Assembly (NCBI GenBank): GCA_963838405.1
Contig: CAWIRA010000005.1
Span: 83,071-147,070, forward strand
Direction: 5' to 3'
Length of the DNA: 64,000 bases
From: an uncultured Solirubrobacteraceae bacterium
Lineage (GTDB): Bacteria > Actinomycetota > Thermoleophilia > Solirubrobacterales > Solirubrobacteraceae
A program made the position numbers and the translations under genes. Under the pieces are notes generated by a model. It did no database searches. It was not told the DNA's origin and worked only from the letters and a program-made list of their open reading frames with translations. Shown here one piece after another: positions 10,812 through 20,840 of this stretch (position 1 is the first letter of the stretch; each line of letters starts with the position of its first letter).

Positions 10812-11600
10812 GTGCGCTTCCCGCGAGCAAGCAGCCGTGCACCAGGCGACGGACCGTATGCGCGGCGCGCGGTTAGCCGCACCGCTGGCGCGGCGCTGCT
10901 GGTAGTGCTCGCGCTCGGCACTACGGGCTGTGCAGTCAAGGGTGAGGACAACGCGAACCTGATCGTCGGCAAGCAGGCGTTCGTCGCCAAGTGCGGCTCG
11001 TGTCACGCGCTCGCCCACGCCGACACCAAGGGCATCGTCGGTCCCGATCTCGACGAAGTCTTCCGCACGAGCATCGCCGAAGGCCTGCAGCGAAACGCTG
11101 TGCGCACGGTCGTCGAAGGCCAGGTCCAGAACCCCAACCCCGACGGGGTGATGCCGAAAGACCTCGCCAGCGGCTCCACGCTGACGGACATCGCCGCCTA
11201 CGTCGCCCAGGTGGCCGCCAAGCCCGGCGCCGACACGGGCCTGCTGGCGAGCGCGGTCGAAGCGCCCGGGGCGGGCAAGCCCGCGGTCGAGAAGGCGGGC
11301 AAGCTGGACATCGACGCCAACCCCGCCGGCGAGCTGGCGTACACGACCACCAAGGCCGAAGCGCAGCCGGGCGCCGTCACGATCGAAATGGCGAACATGT
11401 CGGGCGTCTCGCACAACATCGCCGTGGAACCCGGCGAAAATGGCGCCACGCAGAAGACCGCGGCGATCGGCGCCAGCTCATTCATCACGAAGGGCACGAC
11501 GTCCGTGACCGTCAACCTGAAACCGGGCAAGTACACGTTCTTCTGCGAGGCTCCCGGCCACCGCGCCGCGGGGATGTACGGCACGCTCACCGTGAAGTAG
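10812..11600 (+). CDS. Cytochrome c - cupredoxin (type 1 copper) fusion lipoprotein
   Basis: Lipobox TTGC, CGSCH heme motif with distal GVMP, then HNI and CEAPGHRAAGM copper ligands. Confidence 0.88.
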   Translation: MRFPRASSRAPGDGPYARRAVSRTAGAALLVVLALGTTGCAVKGEDNANLIVGKQAFVAKCGSCHALAHADTKGIVGPDLDEVFRTSIAEGLQRNAVRTVVEGQVQNPNPDGVMPKDLASGSTLTDIAAYVAQVAAKPGADTGLLASAVEAPGAGKPAVEKAGKLDIDANPAGELAYTTTKAEAQPGAVTIEMANMSGVSHNIAVEPGENGATQKTAAIGASSFITKGTTSVTVNLKPGKYTFFCEAPGHRAAGMYGTLTVK

Positions 11601-11614
11601 CCGGCGTCGCGGCG

Positions 11615-11749
11615 CTAGAGGATCACGCGCACGATCACGGCGAGTACGGCGATCACCACGAACACCGCGATCGCGTACAGCAGCAGCCGGAACGCCTCGG
11701 CCTCAGAGCGCAACGGGTTCAGCTTCAGCGATCGAGGATCGAACCTCAC
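11615..11749 (-). CDS. 44-aa single-TM protein at end of oxidase operon
   Basis: MRFDPRSLKLNPLRSEAEAFRLLLYAIAVFVVIAVLAVIVRVIL; starts 16 nt after ctaE stop. Confidence 0.65.
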   Translation of the reverse strand: MRFDPRSLKLNPLRSEAEAFRLLLYAIAVFVVIAVLAVIVRVIL

Positions 11750-11765
11750 GCCGTGTCCACTGCGG

Positions 11766-12404
11766 TCAAAGAACGTAGACGGTCGTAAAGACGACGATCC
11801 ACATGATGTCGACGAAGTGCCAGTAGATGCCCGGCACCTCGACGCCACGGTGTGACTCGGGGCTGTAGTGGCCGCGGAAGGCGCGCACCGTCACGCTCAA
11901 CAGGATCAGCAGGCCGATGAACACGTGCGCGCCGTGTAGGCCTGTGAGCGAGTAGAAGACCGTCTGCTGCGCGTGGTCCTGCGGCGCGAAGCCAAGGTTC
12001 GCGTACTCGTTGATCTGGATGAACAGAAACGTGCAGCCGAGCAGGAACGTTGTCAGCATCCCGGCCTTGAAGCCGAAGCGGTTGCCGCGCTTGATCGATG
12101 CCTCAGCCCAATGCAGCGTAAACGATGAGGACACAAGGATCAGCGTGTTCACGAGCGCGACAGGTACCGGCAGGTGCATGCCGGGTGCGGGCCACGGTTC
12201 GCCTTCGGCGATGCGGATGAAGAAGTAGGCGGTGAAGAACGCCCCGAAGATCATCACCTCGGAGATGATGAAAAGCATCATTCCCAGCAGCGGCGCGTCG
12301 ACCCGCGAGCTGTGGTTCGCAGGGGGCGGCCCGTGGTGCTCGCCCGTGTCCCCGTGGGCGTGGCCGGCGCCGCCTGCCGGGTGGGAGATGCTGGCTGCCT
12401 CCAT
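11766..12404 (-). CDS. ctaE: Cytochrome c oxidase subunit III (short form)
   Basis: FIISEVMIFGAFF, NTLILVSSS, TGLHGAHV, YWHFVDIMW; ATG at 12404. Confidence 0.95.
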   Translation of the reverse strand: MEAASISHPAGGAGHAHGDTGEHHGPPPANHSSRVDAPLLGMMLFIISEVMIFGAFFTAYFFIRIAEGEPWPAPGMHLPVPVALVNTLILVSSSFTLHWAEASIKRGNRFGFKAGMLTTFLLGCTFLFIQINEYANLGFAPQDHAQQTVFYSLTGLHGAHVFIGLLILLSVTVRAFRGHYSPESHRGVEVPGIYWHFVDIMWIVVFTTVYVL

Positions 12405-12414
12405 GCTCGGCCTG

Positions 12415-13257
12415 CTATCCGGCCTGCGACGCGACGGTCGCGGCCTGTGTGTCGACGACGACGTGTTCAACCGGCACCGGCGTTGCGCCGCGCACGCGCT
12501 CGATCAGGTTGGAACGCATCCAGCCCGAGCGCTCTCCCGGCAGCGTCGAGATGACCACATCGTCGACGTGGAAAAGCTCGAGCGCGTTGATCGTCGCCGT
12601 GTACGGATCCGGGTCGCCGATCATGCCCGAGCTCAACAGCCCGGCGGCGTGCAGCCGGTCGAGCATGCTCGCCAGGCGTTCGCGCGCCTCGCGCGGCGCG
12701 CCGCCGCTGCCATCGAGCTGGGGCACGACGGCGATGAACAGCCGCGCGTCGGCTTCGCCCGCCTTCGCGAGCAGGTGCGCGATCAGCTCCTCGCCGCTGG
12801 AGGTCTTGTGCGCGACCACCAGCGTGACCTTCACCGACAGCCCTTCCTGGTCGATGTCGGCCACGATGTGCTCGACCGGCAGCGCCGTGGCGTTCCGGAC
12901 CCGCTCGATCAGATCCCGTCGCAGCCATCCCGAGTGCTGCATCGGATAGGTCGAGAGGATGATCTCGTCGGGCCGGTGCTGGGCGACGGCGTCCATCGTC
13001 GCCATGAACGCGTCGGAGTCGCCGACCTCGCCGCTCGCCTCGATGCCTTCCGCCGCGACCGCCGACAGCGCCAGATCGACGCGCACCTGCGCAGATTCAC
13101 GGACCGCCTCGTCGTAGATGACGAGACCCGCGGACGGGTTCGTCTGGGGCACGACCAGCCTGAAGCGGACGTCGCCCGACGCAGCACGCTCGCGCACGGC
13201 CTCGCGCAGCTTCTCGCCACCGAGCGTACGGTTGGCGATCACAAGAACTTCCTTCAT
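12415..13257 (-). CDS. Two-repeat USP-like (adenine nucleotide alpha-hydrolase fold) protein
   Basis: Internal duplication VLVIANRTLGG...FRLVVP...GDSD...EIILST.P..SGWLR vs TLVVAHKTSSG...FIAVVP...GDPD...DVVISTLP..SGWMR; the USP fold call is inference. Confidence 0.6.
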   Translation of the reverse strand: MKEVLVIANRTLGGEKLREAVRERAASGDVRFRLVVPQTNPSAGLVIYDEAVRESAQVRVDLALSAVAAEGIEASGEVGDSDAFMATMDAVAQHRPDEIILSTYPMQHSGWLRRDLIERVRNATALPVEHIVADIDQEGLSVKVTLVVAHKTSSGEELIAHLLAKAGEADARLFIAVVPQLDGSGGAPREARERLASMLDRLHAAGLLSSGMIGDPDPYTATINALELFHVDDVVISTLPGERSGWMRSNLIERVRGATPVPVEHVVVDTQAATVASQAG

Positions 13258-13273
13258 CGGGTTTGCCTCCTCG

Positions 13274-15178
13274 TCATTGGCTTGGTGCGTGCGCGACGCC
13301 GGTCCCCGCTCCCACCGGGGTTGGCGCCGGTCCGAGGATGCCGTGGACAGCGCCCGGAACGCCGTACTCGTACGGCCCGCCCACGACCGTCGGAACGCGG
13401 TCGAAGTTGAAGATCGGCGGTGGCGAGGAGACCTGCCACTCGAGCGTCATGCTGCGCCAGGGGTTGTCGCCCGCGATCGGGCCGCCGCGCCAGCTAGTGA
13501 CGATGTTGTAGAGGAAGATCAGCATGCTCAGGCCCAGGCCGAAGCTCGCGATCGAGATGAACAGGTTGAGGTCGGCGAACTTCGCTGCGTAGGTGGCAAC
13601 GCGCCGCGGCATGCCCTGCAGGCCGAGGACGTGCATCGGGCCGAAGGTCAGGTTCATGAGGATGAACGTCGTCCAGAAATGCCACTTGCCGAGACGCTCG
13701 TCATACATGCGTCCGGTCATCTTCGGGAACCAGTAATACACGCCAGCGAAGATCGTCATCAGCGAGCCGCCGAACAGCACATAGTGAATATGGGCGACGA
13801 TGAAATAGGTGGAGCTGACGTCGATGTCGAACGGCACCATCGCCAGCATGATCCCGCTGATCCCGCCAAGCGTGAAGGTGGTGATGAAACCAAGCGCGAA
13901 CAGCATCGGTGTGTCGAGGTGAAGCACCCCTCGCCACAGCGTCGCCAGCCACGAGAACACCTTGATGCCGGTTGGCACCGCGATGATCGCGGTCGTGATC
14001 GACATCGGGATGCGGATCCACGCAGCCATGCCGGAGGTGAACATGTGGTGCGCCCACACCGTGAAGCCGAGCCCGACGATCGCCAGCAGCGAGAAAGCCA
14101 TCATGCGGTAGCCAAAGATCGGCTTGCGGGCCTTCACGGCGATGACTTCGCTGATGATCCCGAAGCCGGGCAAGATCATGATGTACACCGCCGGGTGTGA
14201 GTAGAACCAGAAGATGTGTTGGTACATCAGCACGTTGCCGCCCGCCGCTGCGTTGAAGAAGTTAAAGCCGAGCGCCCGGTCGAGCAGCACCATGAACTGC
14301 GACGCGGCGATGAACGGCGTGGCGATCACAACCAGCAGCGATGTCGCGAAGTTCGCCCACACCAGCAGCGGCATCCGGAAGAAGCTCATGCCCGGTGCGC
14401 GCATCGTGATGATCGTGACCAGGAAGTTGAGCGCGGTCATGATCGAGGAGGCGCCTGCGAACTGCACGCCGATCGAGAAGAAGTCCTGCCCGATCGGCGA
14501 GTTGGTTGACAGCGGCGCGTACGCCGTCCAGCCGTCCGCGAACGCCCCGCCGGGCGCCAGGAAGCTGAGCAGCATGATCGTTCCGGCCACGGGCAGCAGC
14601 CAGAACGACAGCGCGTTCAGGCGCGGGAACGCCATGTCCGGGGCGCCGATCATCAGCGGGATCACGAAGTTGCCGAAGCCGGCGAACACCGGCACCATGA
14701 ACAGGAAGATCAAGATCGTCGCGTGGACCGAGAACAGGCCGTTGAACGTGTTGGCGCTGACGAAGTGCGACCCCGGCTGCGCCAGCTGCGCCCGCATCAG
14801 CATCGCCAGCAGCCCGCCGATCAGCAGGAAGATGAACGAGTTCACCAGGTACTGCACGCCGATCACCTTGTGGTCGGTGTTGATGCGGAAGTAGTCCTTC
14901 CACGTGCGCGCGCCGTGACCGGAGTGATCCTCGGGGCGGGTAGGACGGCCCGTGGCCCAGTAGAACCAGTAGTCGAAGCCGCCGATGCCGACGAGGAACG
15001 CCAGCGGCACCGCGAGCAGCGCCACCGTCAGGATCGCTTCGCCCTTGATGAAGTGCGTGAAGGTCGTGTGTCCGGTGGACATCCGCACGACCCACGTCAG
15101 CAGCACCGAAAAGCCGACGGCGGCGACCATCAGCCAGGCGGCGCGATAGAAGCCCGGGCCTCGGAGCTTCGCTGCCAT
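13274..15178 (-). CDS. ctaD: Cytochrome c oxidase subunit I, A2-type
   Basis: TDHKVIG, WFYSHPAVY (YS motif), WAHHMF, PTGIK, AHIHYV, GMPRR. Confidence 0.97.
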   Translation of the reverse strand: MAAKLRGPGFYRAAWLMVAAVGFSVLLTWVVRMSTGHTTFTHFIKGEAILTVALLAVPLAFLVGIGGFDYWFYWATGRPTRPEDHSGHGARTWKDYFRINTDHKVIGVQYLVNSFIFLLIGGLLAMLMRAQLAQPGSHFVSANTFNGLFSVHATILIFLFMVPVFAGFGNFVIPLMIGAPDMAFPRLNALSFWLLPVAGTIMLLSFLAPGGAFADGWTAYAPLSTNSPIGQDFFSIGVQFAGASSIMTALNFLVTIITMRAPGMSFFRMPLLVWANFATSLLVVIATPFIAASQFMVLLDRALGFNFFNAAAGGNVLMYQHIFWFYSHPAVYIMILPGFGIISEVIAVKARKPIFGYRMMAFSLLAIVGLGFTVWAHHMFTSGMAAWIRIPMSITTAIIAVPTGIKVFSWLATLWRGVLHLDTPMLFALGFITTFTLGGISGIMLAMVPFDIDVSSTYFIVAHIHYVLFGGSLMTIFAGVYYWFPKMTGRMYDERLGKWHFWTTFILMNLTFGPMHVLGLQGMPRRVATYAAKFADLNLFISIASFGLGLSMLIFLYNIVTSWRGGPIAGDNPWRSMTLEWQVSSPPPIFNFDRVPTVVGGPYEYGVPGAVHGILGPAPTPVGAGTGVAHAPSQ

Positions 15179-15279
15179 CAGCGTGCCTCCGGTGAAAGCA
15201 TCAGATCGAAGCCATCTAGCACGAGCCCATCTCCCACGAGCCGGTCTCCCATCAAGCGGTCGCCTTCTGCAAGCAACAC
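15178..15279 (-). CDS. Candidate 33-aa micro-ORF bridging ctaC and ctaD
   Basis: GTG overlaps ctaC TAG by 1 nt and TGA overlaps ctaD ATG by 1 nt; could instead be the ctaC tail if the G7 run is miscalled. Confidence 0.35.
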   Translation of the reverse strand: MLLAEGDRLMGDRLVGDGLVLDGFDLMLSPEAR

Positions 15280-16043
15280 TATCCGCTCGCCCCCCCGCCA
15301 GTCGAGCTGCTCGCGCCGGCGCGCAGCTGGCTCCTGATCCACGTCTGGAACGCCGCTGGCGTGACCACGTGCACGGTCGTGCGCATCAACGAATGGCCCA
15401 CCCCGCAGAGCAGGTTGCACACGGCGACGTAGTTGCCGAGGCGGTTCGGGGTGACCTGGATATGCGTGGTGATGCCGGGCACGACATCCTCCTGCACGCG
15501 GAACGCAGGGACGTAGAAGGCGTGGATGACGTCCTTGGAGCGCATGTTGAAGTACACGGGCCGATTGTCGGGGAGATAGAGGTCGTAGCTGTTGATCGTC
15601 GCGCCACCGGTCACCGACCGCGGATACTGGAAGGACCAGTAGAACTGCTGTCCGGTGATGCCGATCTGCAGCTCGTGCGCGGGTTTCTTTTCGTTATCGG
15701 CCAAGATCACGAACGAGTAGCCGACCATCCCGAGCATCAGGATCGCCGGGATCGCCGTCCAGAAGACCTCCAGGCGCGTGTTGCCGTGTATAGGCGCACC
15801 GTCCAGGAGCTCTTGGCCCGGGCGCAGGTGGAACTGCCACACGCAGAACAGGATCACCGCGACGACCAGCACGAAGATCGGGATCGACGCGATCATCAGC
15901 ACGTGGTAGAGGATGTCGGTGTTGTGGGCCTGGGTCGAAGCCTGGACCGGGAACCAATGGATTGCGTAGCTGAGCCAGATCCCGAGCGCCACGGCGATCA
16001 CCGCGAGAACGCCCGCAACGATCATCGAGCGTCGGCTAGGCAT
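15279..16043 (-). CDS. ctaC: Cytochrome c oxidase subunit II (CuA), partner of the A2-type subunit I
   Basis: IHGNTRLEVFWT, GQQFYWSF, DVIHAF, CNLLCGVGHSLM. Confidence 0.96.
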   Translation of the reverse strand: MPSRRSMIVAGVLAVIAVALGIWLSYAIHWFPVQASTQAHNTDILYHVLMIASIPIFVLVVAVILFCVWQFHLRPGQELLDGAPIHGNTRLEVFWTAIPAILMLGMVGYSFVILADNEKKPAHELQIGITGQQFYWSFQYPRSVTGGATINSYDLYLPDNRPVYFNMRSKDVIHAFYVPAFRVQEDVVPGITTHIQVTPNRLGNYVAVCNLLCGVGHSLMRTTVHVVTPAAFQTWIRSQLRAGASSSTGGGASG

Positions 16044-16161
16044 GCGCGCCCGCGTGTTCCCGCATCAAAAATCCCTGTGCGCCTGTCGGCTCCATCCCGC
16101 CGCTGATCCTAACCCGTCCGCCGACGGATAGCTAGACCTTTTCGGCGCCGCTGGCGAGCAC

Positions 16162-16190
16162 TTGACGGCGAGGCTCGCGAGCACTAGATT
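16162..16190 (+). promoter_or_regulatory. Sigma70-type promoter of the CBS gene
   Basis: TTGACG-N17-TAGATT. Confidence 0.7.
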
Positions 16191-16299
16191 GAGGCAATAG
16201 TTGCAAGTGCTCGGAGGGGCGTCCCTCCGGGCAGGTTGACCGCAGGAGCGTTGCCGTTGCGCCATCGATGGAGCATCTGAGCGGGAGGTGGGAGCGAGC

Positions 16300-16713
16300 A
16301 TGCAAGTCCAGCAAGGCATGAGCGAGATGGTCCTCACAGTCGGTCCCAGCCACACGCTGCGCGAGGTCGCGAAGCTGATGGCGCAGCGGCGCGTGGGCGC
16401 GGCCGTGGTCATGGACCCGGACGGCCCTGGCCCGGGCATCATCACCGAGCGCGACATCCTCGTGGCGCTCGGCGCCGGCGAGGATCCGGACCACGAGCAG
16501 GTCATCGACCATCTGACGCGCGACGTCGTCTTCGCTGCGCCCGACTGGTCGCTGGAGGAGGCCGCGGCGGCGATGGTTCGCGGCGGCTTCCGTCACCTGA
16601 TCGTCCTCCAGCGCGGCGAGACCATCGGTGTGCTGTCCGTGCGCGACATCGTGCGCTGCTGGACCGACGACGGTGCGATCTGCTCGGTGCCCGCCAGGGT
16701 AGCCGTGGGGTGA
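16300..16713 (+). CDS. Stand-alone tandem CBS-domain protein
   Basis: GPGIITERDI, FRHLIV, GVLSVRDIV; RBS GGAG before ATG 16300. Confidence 0.9.
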   Translation: MQVQQGMSEMVLTVGPSHTLREVAKLMAQRRVGAAVVMDPDGPGPGIITERDILVALGAGEDPDHEQVIDHLTRDVVFAAPDWSLEEAAAAMVRGGFRHLIVLQRGETIGVLSVRDIVRCWTDDGAICSVPARVAVG

Positions 16714-16721
16714 ACGGGGGA

Positions 16722-16756
16722 GGTGGCAGGCCTGCTTTGGGGAGCAGGCTGCCACC
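16722..16756 (+). terminator. GC-rich hairpin after the CBS gene
   Basis: GGTGGCAG-G-CCTGCT/TTGGGG/AGCAGG-CTGCCACC, no U tract. Confidence 0.55.
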
Positions 16757-16765
16757 ACCACGGCC

Positions 16766-16870
16766 CCAGCGGACCGTCGACGCGGCGCGGACCGGTGTCC
16801 TCGGTCGCTCGCGTGCCTTCGCACGCCACGCTTCCTGCGTCCTTGGTCCGCTTGGTCGACGGCCCGCTGG
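16766..16870 (-). repeat. Structured dispersed element, copy B
   Basis: CCAGCGGACCGTCGAC...GTCGACGGCCCGCTGG terminal stem; core matches copy A at 40 of 45 non-loop positions. Confidence 0.8.
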
Positions 16871-16909
16871 TCGATGATTCGGCGGCCGAGCGGGGCGCGC
16901 GACCTGCGT

Positions 16910-17137
16910 CTAGCGGTGGTCTAGCGGGAGTTCGTTGACTTCGCGGCGCGTGTCTTTGATCCAGAGTGCGATGCAGACGACCGTCAGGATCCCGCCGATG
17001 ACGGTGAACTCGATGAACGTGGTGACGCCGACCAGCGTGAGCGTAATACCCACGGCGGTCAGCAGCGGCAGGATGCTTGGCCCGGGAAGGTGGATCTCCT
17101 CGCCGACGGGCGGCACGTCAGGATCGACGGGGCTCAT
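16910..17137 (-). CDS. 75-aa two-TM protein, cytochrome c oxidase subunit IV (CtaF-like)
   Basis: GEEIHLPGPSILPLL...WIKD pattern; ATGA-coupled at the end of the ctaC-ctaD-ctaB operon. Confidence 0.7.
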   Translation of the reverse strand: MSPVDPDVPPVGEEIHLPGPSILPLLTAVGITLTLVGVTTFIEFTVIGGILTVVCIALWIKDTRREVNELPLDHR

Positions 17138-17247
17138 GAGATGTACGCGGCGGCGACGACGAACGTCAGGCCGAACATGAACATGCAGATCGCGGCCACG
17201 ATCAGCCCGGTGATGATGTTCTTGCGTGCGAGGCGGCGGGTCATCAT
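17134..17247 (-). CDS. 37-aa single-TM protein downstream of ctaB
   Basis: MMTRRLARKNIITGLIVAAICMFMFGLTFVVAAAYIS; ATGA overlap with next gene; below ORF-track cutoff. Confidence 0.65.
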   Translation of the reverse strand: MMTRRLARKNIITGLIVAAICMFMFGLTFVVAAAYIS

Positions 17248-17265
17248 GGGCGTGAAGATTACCGC

Positions 17266-18201
17266 CTAGAGGTGCCGGTCGGCGACCATCGCGCAGAACA
17301 GCAGCGCTAGGTACGCGAGTGAGTAGAGGTACAGGCGCAACGCCGAGCGCCGGTCGGCCCGTCGATACAGGCGCACGGCGCCGGCGATGAAGCCGACGCC
17401 CAGCACCAGCGACGCCACGAGGTAGATCGCGCCGAAGCCGCCCGCGCAGAACGGCAGCTGTGTGACCGCGTACAACAGCACGGAGTAGAGGAGGATCTGC
17501 CGCCGCGTCTCGGCCTCGCCGCGCACCACGGGTAGCATCGGCACGCCGACCTCGCCGTACTCGTCCTTCATCAGCAGCGACAGCGCCCAGAAGTGCGGCG
17601 GCGTCCAGAAGAAGACGATGAAGAACAGGATCACCGCGGTGCCGCTGACCGAGCCGGTGACCGCCGCCCAGCCGACCAGCGGCGGCACCGCACCGGCGGC
17701 GCCGCCGATGACGATGTTCTGCGGGGTACGCCGCTTCAGCCAGAAGGTGTACACGAACACGTAGCCGAGGAAGCCGGAGAACGAGAGCGCCGCTGCGAGC
17801 GGGTTGACGGTCAGCGACAGCTCGAGCAACGACAGCGCCGCGAGCGTGCAACCGAACACGAGCGCGGCGCGCGGTGAGATCCGCCCCGCCGGAATCGGCC
17901 TCGTGGCGGTGCGAGCCATGCGCGCGTCGATGTCGCGGTCGAACCAGTGGTTCACGGCGCCCGCGCCGCCCGCGGACAGGTAGCCGCCGAGGCAGGTGAG
18001 CGCGACCAACAGCACCGACGGATCGCCCGCGACGTACATCGTCGCGATCGTCGTCAGCAGCAGCAGCGATTGGACCTTCGGCTTGGTCAGCTCCAGGTAG
18101 TCGCTCAGCACCTGCAGCGCGCCGCCCGCGCGGCGATCGGCGATCGCGAGTGTCGGTGTCTCGATCGCCGGCGCTGCGCCTGGGTGTGGCGCGAGGCTCA
18201 T
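17266..18201 (-). CDS. ctaB: Protoheme IX farnesyltransferase (heme o synthase)
   Basis: YLELTKPKV, NHWFDRDIDARMARTATRP, LKRRTPQNIVIGG, WTPPHFWAL. Confidence 0.97.
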   Translation of the reverse strand: MSLAPHPGAAPAIETPTLAIADRRAGGALQVLSDYLELTKPKVQSLLLLTTIATMYVAGDPSVLLVALTCLGGYLSAGGAGAVNHWFDRDIDARMARTATRPIPAGRISPRAALVFGCTLAALSLLELSLTVNPLAAALSFSGFLGYVFVYTFWLKRRTPQNIVIGGAAGAVPPLVGWAAVTGSVSGTAVILFFIVFFWTPPHFWALSLLMKDEYGEVGVPMLPVVRGEAETRRQILLYSVLLYAVTQLPFCAGGFGAIYLVASLVLGVGFIAGAVRLYRRADRRSALRLYLYSLAYLALLFCAMVADRHL

Positions 18202-19905
18202 CTACAGGCCGACCTGCGTCGCTCCCGCCGGGACCGTGGCCGTCCCCGGCGCGCGTGCGCCGCCGCTCGCTCGCTCGATCTCGCGGCGGATGTCCTTCAT
18301 CGGCTCAAACGAGCGCACCAACGGCACTACGTCGAAGTTGTTGACCGGCGGCGGCGACGCCGTGAACCACTCGAGCGTGTTCGCCTTCCACGGGTCCGGG
18401 CCGGCGATCACGCCGACCTTGAGACTGCGCCAGACGTTGATGACGGTCACGCCGACCCCAGCGGCGAGGATGAACGAGCCGACCGTCGAGATCAGGTTGT
18501 ACAGGTGCAGGTGACCCACGTTCGGGTACTCGTACACGCGCCGCGGCATCCCGTCAAGTCCGATCACGTGCTGAATCAGGAACGTGACGATGATCCCGAT
18601 GAATATCAACCAGAAGCTCAGCTTGCCGAGGCCTTCTCCGAGCATGCGTCCGGTGATCTTCGGGAACCAGTAGTAGATCGCGGCGAAGATCGGCAGCACC
18701 GCGCCGCCGACCAGCACGAAGTGGATGTGCGCGACCACGAAGTACGTTTCGTTGAGCTGCCAGTCGACGGGGAAGATCGCGAGGAAGACCCCCGAGATGC
18801 CGCCGATCAGGAACACGGCGATGAACCCCGCGCAGAACAGCAGCGGCGTCTTGAATTCGATCGTGCCGCGCCACAGCGTCGCGATCCAGTTGAGCATCTT
18901 CACGCCCGTCGGCACCGCGATCAGGAACGAGCTGAGCATCACGAACACGAGGATCGCCTCCGGTATCGGCGCCGTGAACATGTGGTGCGCCCACGTCAGG
19001 AAGCCGAGGAAGGCGATCGCCACGGTCGACGCCGCGATCGCCTTGTAGCCGAAGATCGGCTTGCGCGCGAACACCGGCAGGATCTCCGAGACGATGCCGA
19101 AGCCCGGCAGCACCATGATGTAGACCTCCGGGTGCCCGAAGAACCAGAACAGGTTCTGCCACAAAAGCGGCGAGCCGCCGAGGGCGGGGTCGAACCAGTG
19201 GGTGCCGAAGTGGCGGTCGGTGAGCAGCATCGTCACCGCTGCCGCGATCACCGGCAGCGCGAAGATCAGCAGCACCGAGTACGTCAACATCGCCCACACG
19301 AACAGCGGCAGCCGGCCCCAGCTCATGCCGCGCGCGCGCATGTTGGCGACGGTCGCGTAGAAGTTGATCGCCCCGACCAGCGATGAGATGCCGGTGAGGT
19401 GGATCAGGTAGATCCAAGCGTCCTGCCCGCCGGACGGCGAGTACAGGGTGCTGGAGAGGGGGGGATAGCTCGTCCAGCCCGCTTCCGGCGGGTGCCAGAA
19501 GATCGACGCGTAGAAGACGATGCCGCCGGCGAGCAGCAGCCAGAAGGACAGCGCGTTCAGCCGCGGGAACGCCATGTCGCGCGCGCCAATCATCAGCGGC
19601 AGGAAGTAGTTGGCGATCCCCGCCATCATCGGCACGACGAACAGGAAGATCATCGTCGTGCCGTGCATCGTGAACAGCTGGTTGTAGATTTCCGGCGTCA
19701 CCAGCGTGTTGTTCGGGGCGCCCAGCTGCAGGCGGATCATCAGCGCCTCGACGCCGCCGAGGATGAAGAACACGAACGTCAGGACCATGTACATGATCCC
19801 GATGCGCTTGTGGTCGGTGGTCGTGATCCAGCTCGTCCAGCCGCTCGCCTCGCGCTCGGCGCGATGGGCGGTTATCTCTGGGATGGGGGCTACGTAGGTG
19901 GCCAT
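18202..19905 (-). CDS. ctaD: Cytochrome c oxidase subunit I, A1-type
   Basis: TDHKRIG, TMHGT, WFFGHPEVY, WAHHMF, PTGVK, AHIHFV, GMPRR. Confidence 0.97.
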   Translation of the reverse strand: MATYVAPIPEITAHRAEREASGWTSWITTTDHKRIGIMYMVLTFVFFILGGVEALMIRLQLGAPNNTLVTPEIYNQLFTMHGTTMIFLFVVPMMAGIANYFLPLMIGARDMAFPRLNALSFWLLLAGGIVFYASIFWHPPEAGWTSYPPLSSTLYSPSGGQDAWIYLIHLTGISSLVGAINFYATVANMRARGMSWGRLPLFVWAMLTYSVLLIFALPVIAAAVTMLLTDRHFGTHWFDPALGGSPLLWQNLFWFFGHPEVYIMVLPGFGIVSEILPVFARKPIFGYKAIAASTVAIAFLGFLTWAHHMFTAPIPEAILVFVMLSSFLIAVPTGVKMLNWIATLWRGTIEFKTPLLFCAGFIAVFLIGGISGVFLAIFPVDWQLNETYFVVAHIHFVLVGGAVLPIFAAIYYWFPKITGRMLGEGLGKLSFWLIFIGIIVTFLIQHVIGLDGMPRRVYEYPNVGHLHLYNLISTVGSFILAAGVGVTVINVWRSLKVGVIAGPDPWKANTLEWFTASPPPVNNFDVVPLVRSFEPMKDIRREIERASGGARAPGTATVPAGATQVGL

Positions 19906-19929: not shown

Positions 19930-20757
19930 CTAGGGGTTCTCGACCTTTTCGGCGCCTTCGTGTGCGTTAAGCAGGGTGCGCGCCTTCGCCGCTTCCCTGT
20001 TGGCTTCTGAGATCTCCTGCTTCTGGTTCGCAAGCCACGCTTCGAACTGCGCCGGCGGCACCGCCTTGACGGTCGCGATCATGCGCGCGTGCCCGCGACC
20101 GCACAGCAGCGCGCACTGGCCGCGGAACAGCCCCGGCTTGCTGACCTTGAACCACGTGTAGTTGTGGTAGCCGGGCACCGCCTGAAACTTTCCGCCCAGT
20201 TCCGGCACCCACCACGAGTGCACGACGTCCTGCGAGACGATGTTCAGCGTGACCGTCGTGTTGGTCGGCACGACGAGTTCCTCATAGCTGTAGGGCGCGC
20301 CCAGACCGTCGGGTTCGTTCGCTCCCGGGTACACGAACTGCCACACGTACTGACGGCCGATCACCGTGATTTCCAGCGATTTGCCATTCGGTGGCAAGCG
20401 GCGCTGGTTGCTCGCGTAGAGCAGGTTGTTCTGTTCGCCCAGGTCCGCCAGTGAGGACCCGCCCGGTCCCGAGTTCGGCGGATCCTGGATCGAGGACAGC
20501 TTCGAGAACGTCAGCACGGCAAGGCCGAGCAGGATCACGGCTGCCGCGACCGTCCAGCTCACCTCCAGGCGGGTGTTGCCGTGGATCTGCGCCGGCACCG
20601 CGCCCTTGCGCTTACGGAACCTGACCAGCGCGTACACCAGCGCCCCCTCGACCGCGAAGAAGATCACCAGCGCTATGTAGAGCGTGATGTCGTAGAGGTT
20701 GCTGATCTCGTGCGCGTTCGGCGAAGCACCGTGCGCAGGACCAAAGAACGCGAGCAT
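19930..20757 (-). CDS. ctaC: Cytochrome c oxidase subunit II (CuA), partner of the A1-type subunit I
   Basis: IHGNTRLEVSWT, GRQYVWQF, DVVHSWW, CALLCGRGHARM; start ATG 20757 or TTG 20778, not 21558. Confidence 0.95.
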   Translation of the reverse strand: MLAFFGPAHGASPNAHEISNLYDITLYIALVIFFAVEGALVYALVRFRKRKGAVPAQIHGNTRLEVSWTVAAAVILLGLAVLTFSKLSSIQDPPNSGPGGSSLADLGEQNNLLYASNQRRLPPNGKSLEITVIGRQYVWQFVYPGANEPDGLGAPYSYEELVVPTNTTVTLNIVSQDVVHSWWVPELGGKFQAVPGYHNYTWFKVSKPGLFRGQCALLCGRGHARMIATVKAVPPAQFEAWLANQKQEISEANREAAKARTLLNAHEGAEKVENP

Positions 20758-20840
20758 TGCGGGGAGCAGGTGGCCCAAGGCGGCGGGGATTCTATTCAGG
20801 CGCGGGCCGGACGCGCTTGATGACGTTTGCCACGAGGCCT

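Follow-up and report, generated by a model that had tools for sequence, protein, structure and literature searches.

Tandem A1- and A2-type haem-copper oxidase operons of Solirubrobacterales: probably two separate enzymes, of which the A1 enzyme lacks the subunit III core

The 64,000-nucleotide stretch analysed here (the window; from contig CAWIRA010000005.1 of an uncultured Solirubrobacteraceae bacterium) carries two A-family haem-copper oxidase operons in tandem, both on the minus strand. We refer to the A1-type operon as module 1 and to the A2-type operon as module 2. With a probability of roughly 60%, we consider that they encode two separate, independently transcribed aa3-type oxidases, that the A1 enzyme natively works without the five-transmembrane (5-TM) core of subunit III, and that haem O/A synthesis is all that the two enzymes necessarily share. 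An earlier, sequence-only reading had suggested that the enzymes share or swap subunits III/IV, or that one of them works without subunit III. The latter part was supported by six genomes in which an A1 enzyme occurs without ctaE, the gene for the subunit III core, while the sharing found little support. Because a gene on the opposite strand, encoding a CBS-pair protein, lies between the two operons, they represent separate transcription units.

The A1-type subunit I with GHPEVY beside an A2-type subunit I with YSHPAVY, as the sequence-only reading had described, was confirmed by the COX1 and TIGR02891 scores (Table 1) and by the motifs. Subunit I of module 1 contains the six His ligands (MHG, GHPEVY, WAHHMF, VVAHIH); its helix VI reads FWFFGHPEVY, and the residues of the D channel (ANY..GARDMAFPRLN; N/D/N) and of the K channel (PTGVK; T/K) are present. 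This combination of the helix VI Glu at the end of the D channel with D- and K-channel residues is that of the A1 type, and GHPEVY recurs in 97 of 98 module-1 orthologues. Subunit I of module 2 has all metal ligands as well, and Tyr-Ser replaces the helix VI Glu (FWFYSHPAVY) while the D and K channels are retained (GNF..GAPDMAFPRLN and PTGIK), as in the A2 type; the Tyr-Ser motif was found in all 82 module-2 orthologues. Each subunit I also has a CuA subunit II of its own, as had been claimed, with complete CuA motifs in module 1 (H..CALLCGRGHARM) and module 2 (H..CNLLCGVGHSLM). Neither subunit II contains CxxCH, that is, a fused haem c domain. Since CuA is complete and CxxCH is missing, both enzymes belong to the aa3 type of cytochrome c (or cupredoxin) oxidase, as distinct from caa3.

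Copy numbers were determined in the source assembly, which is 93.5% complete and consists of 6 contigs. Genome-wide, it contains one COX3, two COX1, two COX2, and one cytochrome bd. By tblastn of the assembly, ctaB, ctaE, and the genes for three small proteins, sm75, sm37, and sm44, are each single-copy. One ctaB and one CtaF-like gene in the A1 operon and one ctaE in the A2 operon had been predicted, and these assignments hold, the CtaF-like gene being sm75. A check for further copies elsewhere in the genome revealed no second ctaE or ctaF and a single ctaA, located on another contig (C6:1756859-1757725). A canonical CtaF was not found in the PF12270 search of the assembly; the sole match (C6:297699-297833, E 0.075), considered as a second CtaF, was a chance hydrophobic match in an unrelated protein. 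The sharing of ctaB and ctaA, and hence of haem O/A synthesis, is real but trivial. In other families of the order, ctaA lies between module-1 coxI and ctaB (L016:4076-5170, L018:6570-7661); its relocation to a different contig in the window genus has left coxI and ctaB abutting. A hidden subunit III was also sought in the ~1.1-kb gap between coxI and ctaB of those families, which turned out to contain ctaA.

A dedicated subunit III gene (COX3, with 5 or 7 TM helices) is present in module 2 and missing from module 1. The ctaE product is the 5-TM short form, which covers positions 68-255 of the COX3 profile only and lacks helices 1-2. In module 1, sm75 encodes a two-helix hairpin; among its orthologues (15-row alignment), the motif H-L-P-x-P-S-x-x-P is invariant and precedes two TM helices. 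PF12270 (Cyt_c_ox_IV, the actinobacterial CtaF family) was matched by 13 of the 15 orthologues at about positions 79-125 of 132, with a best E of 2.5e-6; sm75 of the window scored 13.3 bits (E 0.087), below the 26.9-bit gathering cut-off. Judged by these profile alignments, sm75 is a relative of CtaF's C-terminal half but falls short of full membership of the 4-TM family. Its top PDB profile matches, weak but co-linear and including the motif, were to residues 8-65 of Rhodobacter sphaeroides subunit III (helices 1-2; E 0.09) and to the extra C-terminal helices of Bacillus subtilis QoxB (residues 576-623; E 0.13), and in these alignments sm75 resembles helices 1-2 of canonical subunit III. In Mycobacterium smegmatis, CtaE and CtaF together make up the equivalent of canonical subunit III, with CtaF supplying helices 1 and 2 (reviewed in PMC8361435). 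Because sm75 is a half-sized CtaF-like hairpin encoded in module 1, and ctaE lies in module 2, the halves of a split subunit III are encoded in different oxidase operons.

We then surveyed 151 genomes of the order Solirubrobacterales with a completeness of 90% or more; the queries were the A1 subunit I, Pfam COX3, and the sm75 profile. COX3 was absent from 11 genomes. Six genomes are A1-only (G062, 99% complete; G096, 98%; G117, a single contig, 95%; G123; G147; and G168): their sole COX1 is a module-1 orthologue with GHPEVY and all His ligands intact, and neither an A2 coxI nor a ctaE-type COX3 was found in them. Their loci consist of coxII, coxI, ctaB, sm37 (not detected in G147), and sm75, followed by unrelated genes; the contig of G123 stops ~2.2 kb past sm75. 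Thus ctaE has disappeared along with module 2, and the A1 enzyme is independent of it. Every strong COX3 match that was compared with the coxI positions, among the matches listed for the 151 genomes, adjoins an A2-type coxI within a few kb. Another two genomes without COX3 (G111 and G154) have an A2 coxI that is cut by a contig end. Two weak COX3-like matches were seen in G117 (best E 2.4e-12); the one listed (L111:5264-5830) is a divergent orphan, 25% identical to ctaE and far from the sole coxI. The gene downstream of sm75 in one A1-only genome was considered as a hidden subunit III and rejected, as its product is not a polytopic membrane protein.

The distribution of sm75 follows module 1. 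A single match was detected in 144 of the 151 genomes, while G036 has two and six genomes have none at E <= 0.01, and in every family the gene is located downstream of the module-1 operon, after ctaB and sm37. In two families (f4 and f5), the ligands of haem a, haem a3, and CuB are gone from module-1 subunit I, as is CuA from module-1 subunit II. The haem a His is changed to Tyr, GHPEVY to FTGGY, and WAHHMF to WMHNMY, and AHxH and the CuA Cys and His are lost. These ligand-less coxI and coxII genes are still intact open reading frames (ORFs) with ctaB, sm37, and a divergent sm75 after them, beside a live A2 operon (L112:9507-11939, L113:15728-18159, L114:2897-5394, L115:13700-16026), and on sequence grounds this 'dead' oxidase module is derived from the A1 module. 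The sm75 profile scored 21-62 bits in f4/f5 versus roughly 67-132 bits elsewhere, and in G143 the His of the sm75 motif is lost. Identity to the window proteins is still 56-72% for ctaE, A2 subunit I, and ctaB in the four f4/f5 loci examined. Because sm75 degenerates where module 1 is ligand-less while ctaE stays conserved, its evolution tracks module 1 as opposed to ctaE or module 2. In 50 genomes, a mirror-tree analysis, to which we attach little weight, weakly suggested the same pairing of sm75 with A1 and of ctaE with A2: partial r for sm75 was 0.36 with coxII_A1, 0.26 with coxI_A1, and 0.16 with coxI_A2, and ctaE and p280 (the gene between module-2 coxI and ctaE) reached 0.48 and 0.57 with coxI_A2.

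Several observations weigh against two separate enzymes with an A1 enzyme that natively lacks the subunit III core. The mirror-tree signal is weak, and ctaE also correlates with coxII_A1 (0.47). The absence calls were made in metagenome-assembled genomes (MAGs) that are 93-99% complete. In family f3, ~13 kb separate sm37 from ctaB, and sm37 and sm75 adjoin the A2 operon; moreover, only one A2-bearing genome (G054) has no detectable sm75. By analogy, one might expect an enzyme with a 5-TM CtaE to require a partner similar to CtaF, and sm75 is the only such gene here. G054 (family f4, 97% complete; L116:7506-9419) is also a case in which an intact A2 coxI occurs without ctaE, p280, or sm75, so the link between ctaE and A2 is not absolute. 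Either this A2 enzyme works without any subunit III pieces, or the assembly has a gap. The A2 coxI of G054 has the N-terminal extension described below, and the next gene, by eye, is glycoside-hydrolase-like, in place of p280 and ctaE.

Some of these points would also fit a split subunit III that is shared, in which CtaE from module 2 and sm75 from module 1 combine into a single equivalent of subunit III that serves the A2 enzyme or both enzymes, and the operons are interdependent. The strongest point for the sharing proposed in the sequence-only reading is precisely that the pieces of the split subunit III lie in two different operons. The similarity of sm75 to the C-terminal half of CtaF and to subunit III helices 1-2, the M. 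smegmatis precedent (PMC8361435), the single-copy status of both ctaE and sm75, and the presence of sm75 in all A2-bearing genomes but G054 are in line with it, as is the position of sm37 and sm75 in f3. The N-terminal extension of A2 subunit I showed, in Pfam and PDB profile searches, no CtaF similarity by which it would be an obvious substitute for sm75. We nevertheless regard such sharing as unlikely, since the six A1-only genomes keep sm75 and drop ctaE, and since sm75 degenerates with the dead module 1 in f4/f5 while ctaE remains conserved. In addition, 5-TM subunit III enzymes without a helix 1-2 partner are known, for example that of Flavobacterium johnsoniae, as cited in PMC8361435, and the A2 enzyme of G054 has neither ctaE nor sm75.

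The placing of the split subunit III halves in two operons could also reflect physical cooperation between the A1 and A2 enzymes, through a common 2-TM hairpin or in a heteromeric double oxidase in which CtaE and sm75 lie at the interface, and this partnership would keep the ligand-less module 1 alive in f4/f5; we find this rather improbable. A single heteromeric double-oxidase complex, with the split subunit III pieces at the interface and the ligand-less module 1 as a non-catalytic remnant of the partnership, would account for the linkage of the modules in tandem across the order and for the intact but ligand-less module-1 subunits I and II beside the live A2 operon in f4/f5. Such a complex is very unlikely, however, given that module 1 occurs alone in six genomes, that the modules are 13-150 kb apart in f2 and f3, and that the modules do not correlate above background in the mirror-tree analysis. 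It also seems barely credible that one operon is redundant or silent, a duplicate in the process of being lost, in which case the question of sharing would be moot. Module 2 has indeed been lost in several lineages, and module 1 has lost its catalytic residues in f4/f5, but the window genus keeps every ligand and channel residue in both subunit I genes, dN/dS (the ratio of nonsynonymous to synonymous substitution rates) is about 0.2 in both modules, and more than 50 genomes have the complete tandem intact.

In the arrangement of two separate oxidases that we favour, and assuming that both are expressed, the A1 enzyme would consist of subunits II and I of module 1, most likely with sm75 and perhaps with sm37, and would work without the 5-TM subunit III core. 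The A2 enzyme would consist of subunit II, subunit I with its two extra N-terminal helices, the 5-TM CtaE, and probably sm44, all encoded in module 2. The soluble protein p280 is co-encoded with the A2 enzyme and is possibly a regulator. The only parts that would have to be shared are the cofactor enzymes, namely the products of ctaB, which lies inside module 1, and of ctaA.

Table 1. Coordinates of the genes of the two oxidase modules and their neighbours, in window positions, with the basis of each assignment
Feature	Coordinates	Strand	Basis
Module 1 coxII (CoxB/CtaC)	19930-20778	-	COX2 70.6 bits and COX2_TM; TIGR02866 182.7 bits (cut-off 147.7)
Module 1 coxI, A1 type, 567 aa	18202-19905	-	COX1 547.6 bits; TIGR02891 707 bits (cut-off 670.75)
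ctaB, haem O synthase	17266-18201	-	NF003349 371.9 bits; TIGR01473 341.5 bits
sm37, 37-aa single-TM peptide (MMTRRLARKNI...)	17134-17247	-	Sequence; conserved as protein across sampled families
sm75, 75-aa 2-TM CtaF-like hairpin	16910-17137	-	Orthologue alignment; partial PF12270 matches
CBS-pair protein	16288-16713	+	Pfam CBS 79.7 bits
Module 2 coxII	15279-16043	-	COX2 55.6 bits and COX2_TM; TIGR02866 166.8 bits
Module 2 coxI, A2 type, 634 aa	13274-15178	-	COX1 520.6 bits over residues 106-546; TIGR02891 682 bits
p280, soluble 280-aa protein between coxI and ctaE	12415-13257	-	Predicted structure, Foldseek
ctaE, 5-TM short subunit III	11766-12404	-	PF00510 139 bits (cut-off 23.8), profile positions 68-255 only
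sm44, 44-aa single-TM peptide, last gene of module 2	11615-11749	-	Sequence, conservation across families
Cytochrome c / plastocyanin-like cupredoxin fusion	10812-11600	+	Copper-bind 48.9 bits; Cytochrom_C 21.9 bits

The region has a GC content of 70%, and most of the listed ORFs are spurious; genes were therefore selected by Pfam and NCBIfam matches and by conservation among relatives. A scan for promoter and terminator consensus sequences gave nothing informative in this GC-rich DNA. Within each operon, the genes are tightly packed or overlapping: the stop codon of module-1 coxI directly abuts ctaB, and the sm37 stop and the sm75 start overlap as ATGA. Module-1 coxII, which lies just beyond the range 11615-19905 covered by the sequence-only reading, starts, as read from the sequence, with TTG at 20778 or alternatively with ATG at 20757. 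The CBS gene between the operons is convergent with module 1 and divergent from module 2, a position kept in at least 53 loci (synteny). The cytochrome c/cupredoxin fusion, a candidate electron donor, remains convergent with module 2 in at least 53 loci. Its cupredoxin domain has four paralogous copies at other genome sites (C2:58437-59060, C6:23426-23701, C6:455977-456252), of which two form a tandem.

Among solved structures, the nearest to subunit I of module 1 is M. smegmatis CtaD (6adq_F, 550 bits). For subunit I of module 2, the nearest solved relatives are actinobacterial CtaD chains (532 bits), and 2yev_A is also strong (487 bits). Scores stayed below the cut-offs of the NCBIfam equivalogs for actinobacterial aa3 (NF050116, NF050117, and NF050119), at 619/598 versus 880 for CtaD, 128/131 versus 250, and 132.9 versus 190 for CtaE (NF050119, aa3_CtaE_Actin). 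Subunit I of module 2 has an N-terminal extension of ~100 residues with two extra helices by TM prediction, which is conserved across the order and gave zero Pfam family or PDB profile matches. We considered this extension, for an 'RPED' likeness, as an N-terminal half of CtaF and rejected the idea, as Pfam and PDB profiles gave no support. In both enzymes of the window genus, ligands of the Mg/Mn site are missing: the position of His411-Asp412 (R. sphaeroides numbering) is occupied by Asn-Glu in A1 and by Ser-Ser in A2. Both subunit II proteins have C-x-L-L-C instead of the usual C-x-E-L-C, and relatives in other families retain the Asp and the Glu.

Among the remaining small and accessory proteins, sm37 is conserved order-wide directly after ctaB. 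Its match to the mitochondrial assembly factor Coa3 (Coa3_cc, PF09813) was weak (E 0.028, below the cut-off); sm37 may be an assembly factor instead of a subunit. The sm44 peptide contains a conserved core, NPLRSE-x-EAFR-x-LLY, followed by a TM helix. In family f2 (L021:7457-8143, L023:7436-8104), sm44, recognised by its NPLRSE..AFR motif, is fused to one domain of the p280 type, which resembles the universal stress protein (USP). Because they are fused there, sm44 and the USP-like protein appear to be functionally linked. Neither sm37 nor sm44 nor the sm44 fusion had a Pfam match above the cut-offs.

The p280 protein likewise had zero Pfam or NCBIfam matches, including no match to USP. Its AlphaFold model (pLDDT 83) shows two tandem USP-like domains of Rossmann-like alpha/beta fold. 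Foldseek retrieved 2iel (Thermus thermophilus TT0030; TM-score 0.80 on the target) as the best match, then the tandem USPs 3loq, 5cb0, 3ab7, and 3cis, with a probability of 1.0 for tandem USPs; UspE, TTHA0350, and Rv2623 are among the tandem USPs matched. The protein is predicted to be cytoplasmic. The gene is kept between coxI and ctaE in families f1-f4 and is absent in f5. A single-domain paralogue occurs elsewhere in the genome (C6:1914264-1914674).

The tandem is widespread in the order. The sm75 query matched 434 loci, and among the 80 of these whose titles were retrieved, nearly all were MAGs of Solirubrobacteraceae/Solirubrobacterales (Thermoleophilia, Actinomycetota), mostly from soil. 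The full tandem, in the order ECH, coxII, coxI, ctaB, sm37, sm75, (CBS), coxII, coxI, p280, ctaE, sm44, (cytochrome c/cupredoxin fusion), was clean in 53 of 115 loci (111 mapped), with further cases among fragmented matches. Other families carry both modules with the tandem broken elsewhere, as in f2 and f6 between CBS and module 2. In the phylogeny of the two subunit I proteins, which the sequence-only reading had proposed as a check, a maximum-likelihood tree of 66 sequences split module 1 from module 2 with 100/100 support, and on this basis the A1/A2 paralogy predates the order. Relative to eight congeners, dN/dS was 0.17-0.32 for all ten genes except sm44 (0.59), with 0.20 for A1 coxI, 0.19 for A2 coxI, and about 0.2 also for ctaE, ctaB, and sm75. 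Judged by these ratios, neither module is decaying, and both are under similar purifying selection.

In one genome of family f6 (G029; L024:4847-6463), the A1 subunit I orthologue carries YSHPAVY. It is 61% identical to A1 and 49% to A2, and the tree places it in module 1. The A1/A2 motif can thus switch inside one orthologous clade, which argues against the use of these motifs as deep phylogenetic markers. COX3 was not found in this genome, which is only 84% complete.

The catalytic parts of both modules are all ordinary members of known families. Family A oxidases are regarded as having a conserved core of three subunits, one of them subunit III (PMC9145763). That A1 and A2 oxidases can occur in one genome is known from other lineages; both types are discussed, for instance, in a genomic survey of the class Acidithiobacillia. 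In our literature search, we found no description of a natural A1-type oxidase with a D channel and without the subunit III core that is conserved across an order, of the halves of an actinobacterial split subunit III spread over two oxidase operons, or of Solirubrobacterales oxidases. Within this single order, oxidase duplication has had three outcomes: both enzymes were kept, A2 was lost with its ctaE, or A1 turned into a ligand-less pseudo-oxidase. In some members of this widespread soil order, the A1 enzyme is the sole haem-copper oxidase.

The nearest solved relatives of both subunit I proteins belong to the actinobacterial aa3 oxidase CtaC/CtaD/CtaE/CtaF of the bcc-aa3 supercomplex (M. 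smegmatis 6ADQ/6HWH, Corynebacterium glutamicum 7Q21). The present system resembles it in the 5-TM short CtaE, in a separate small protein carrying the equivalent of helices 1-2, and in a subunit II without fused cytochrome c. It differs in that there are two complete I+II pairs and not one, and in that the CtaF-like protein is a 2-TM half of 75 residues and not a 4-TM protein. Furthermore, the CtaF-like gene and ctaE lie in different oxidase operons here, and the phyletic data assign them to different enzymes.

For the A2 enzyme, the closest counterparts are the caa3 oxidases of Rhodothermus marinus and T. thermophilus (PDB 2YEV), A2-type oxidases with the helix VI Tyr-Ser. As in these enzymes, YSHPAVY replaces the helix VI Glu in module 2, and the D and K channels are kept. 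Unlike them, module 2 has no cytochrome c domain in subunit II and no I/III fusion, and its 2-TM N-terminal extension has no known relative. QoxB of the B. subtilis aa3-600 quinol oxidase (6KOB/6KOC) provides the equivalent of helices 1-2 in another way, next to a 5-TM subunit III; the sm75 profile aligns to its C-terminal helices (576-623), including the H-x-P-x-x-S motif. Unlike sm75, the hairpin of QoxB forms one chain with subunit I, and the aa3-600 enzyme oxidises quinol and has no CuA.

A further comparison for module 1 is the subunit III-depleted aa3 oxidase of R. sphaeroides (the I-II oxidase of Hosler and co-workers, as cited in PMC9145763 and PMC8361435), which like the module-1 enzyme is of A1 type, with an intact D channel and no subunit III core. 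According to a reference cited in PMC8361435, the I-II oxidase no longer takes up protons rapidly by way of the D pathway at physiological pH, and a review cited in PMC9145763 describes its mechanism-based inactivation. Unlike this laboratory preparation, the module-1 enzyme would lack the subunit III core naturally and across the order, and a 2-TM remnant is kept. A natural A1 enzyme with a canonical D channel and only a 2-TM remnant of subunit III would thus constitute a natural experiment on the need for subunit III and its replacement.

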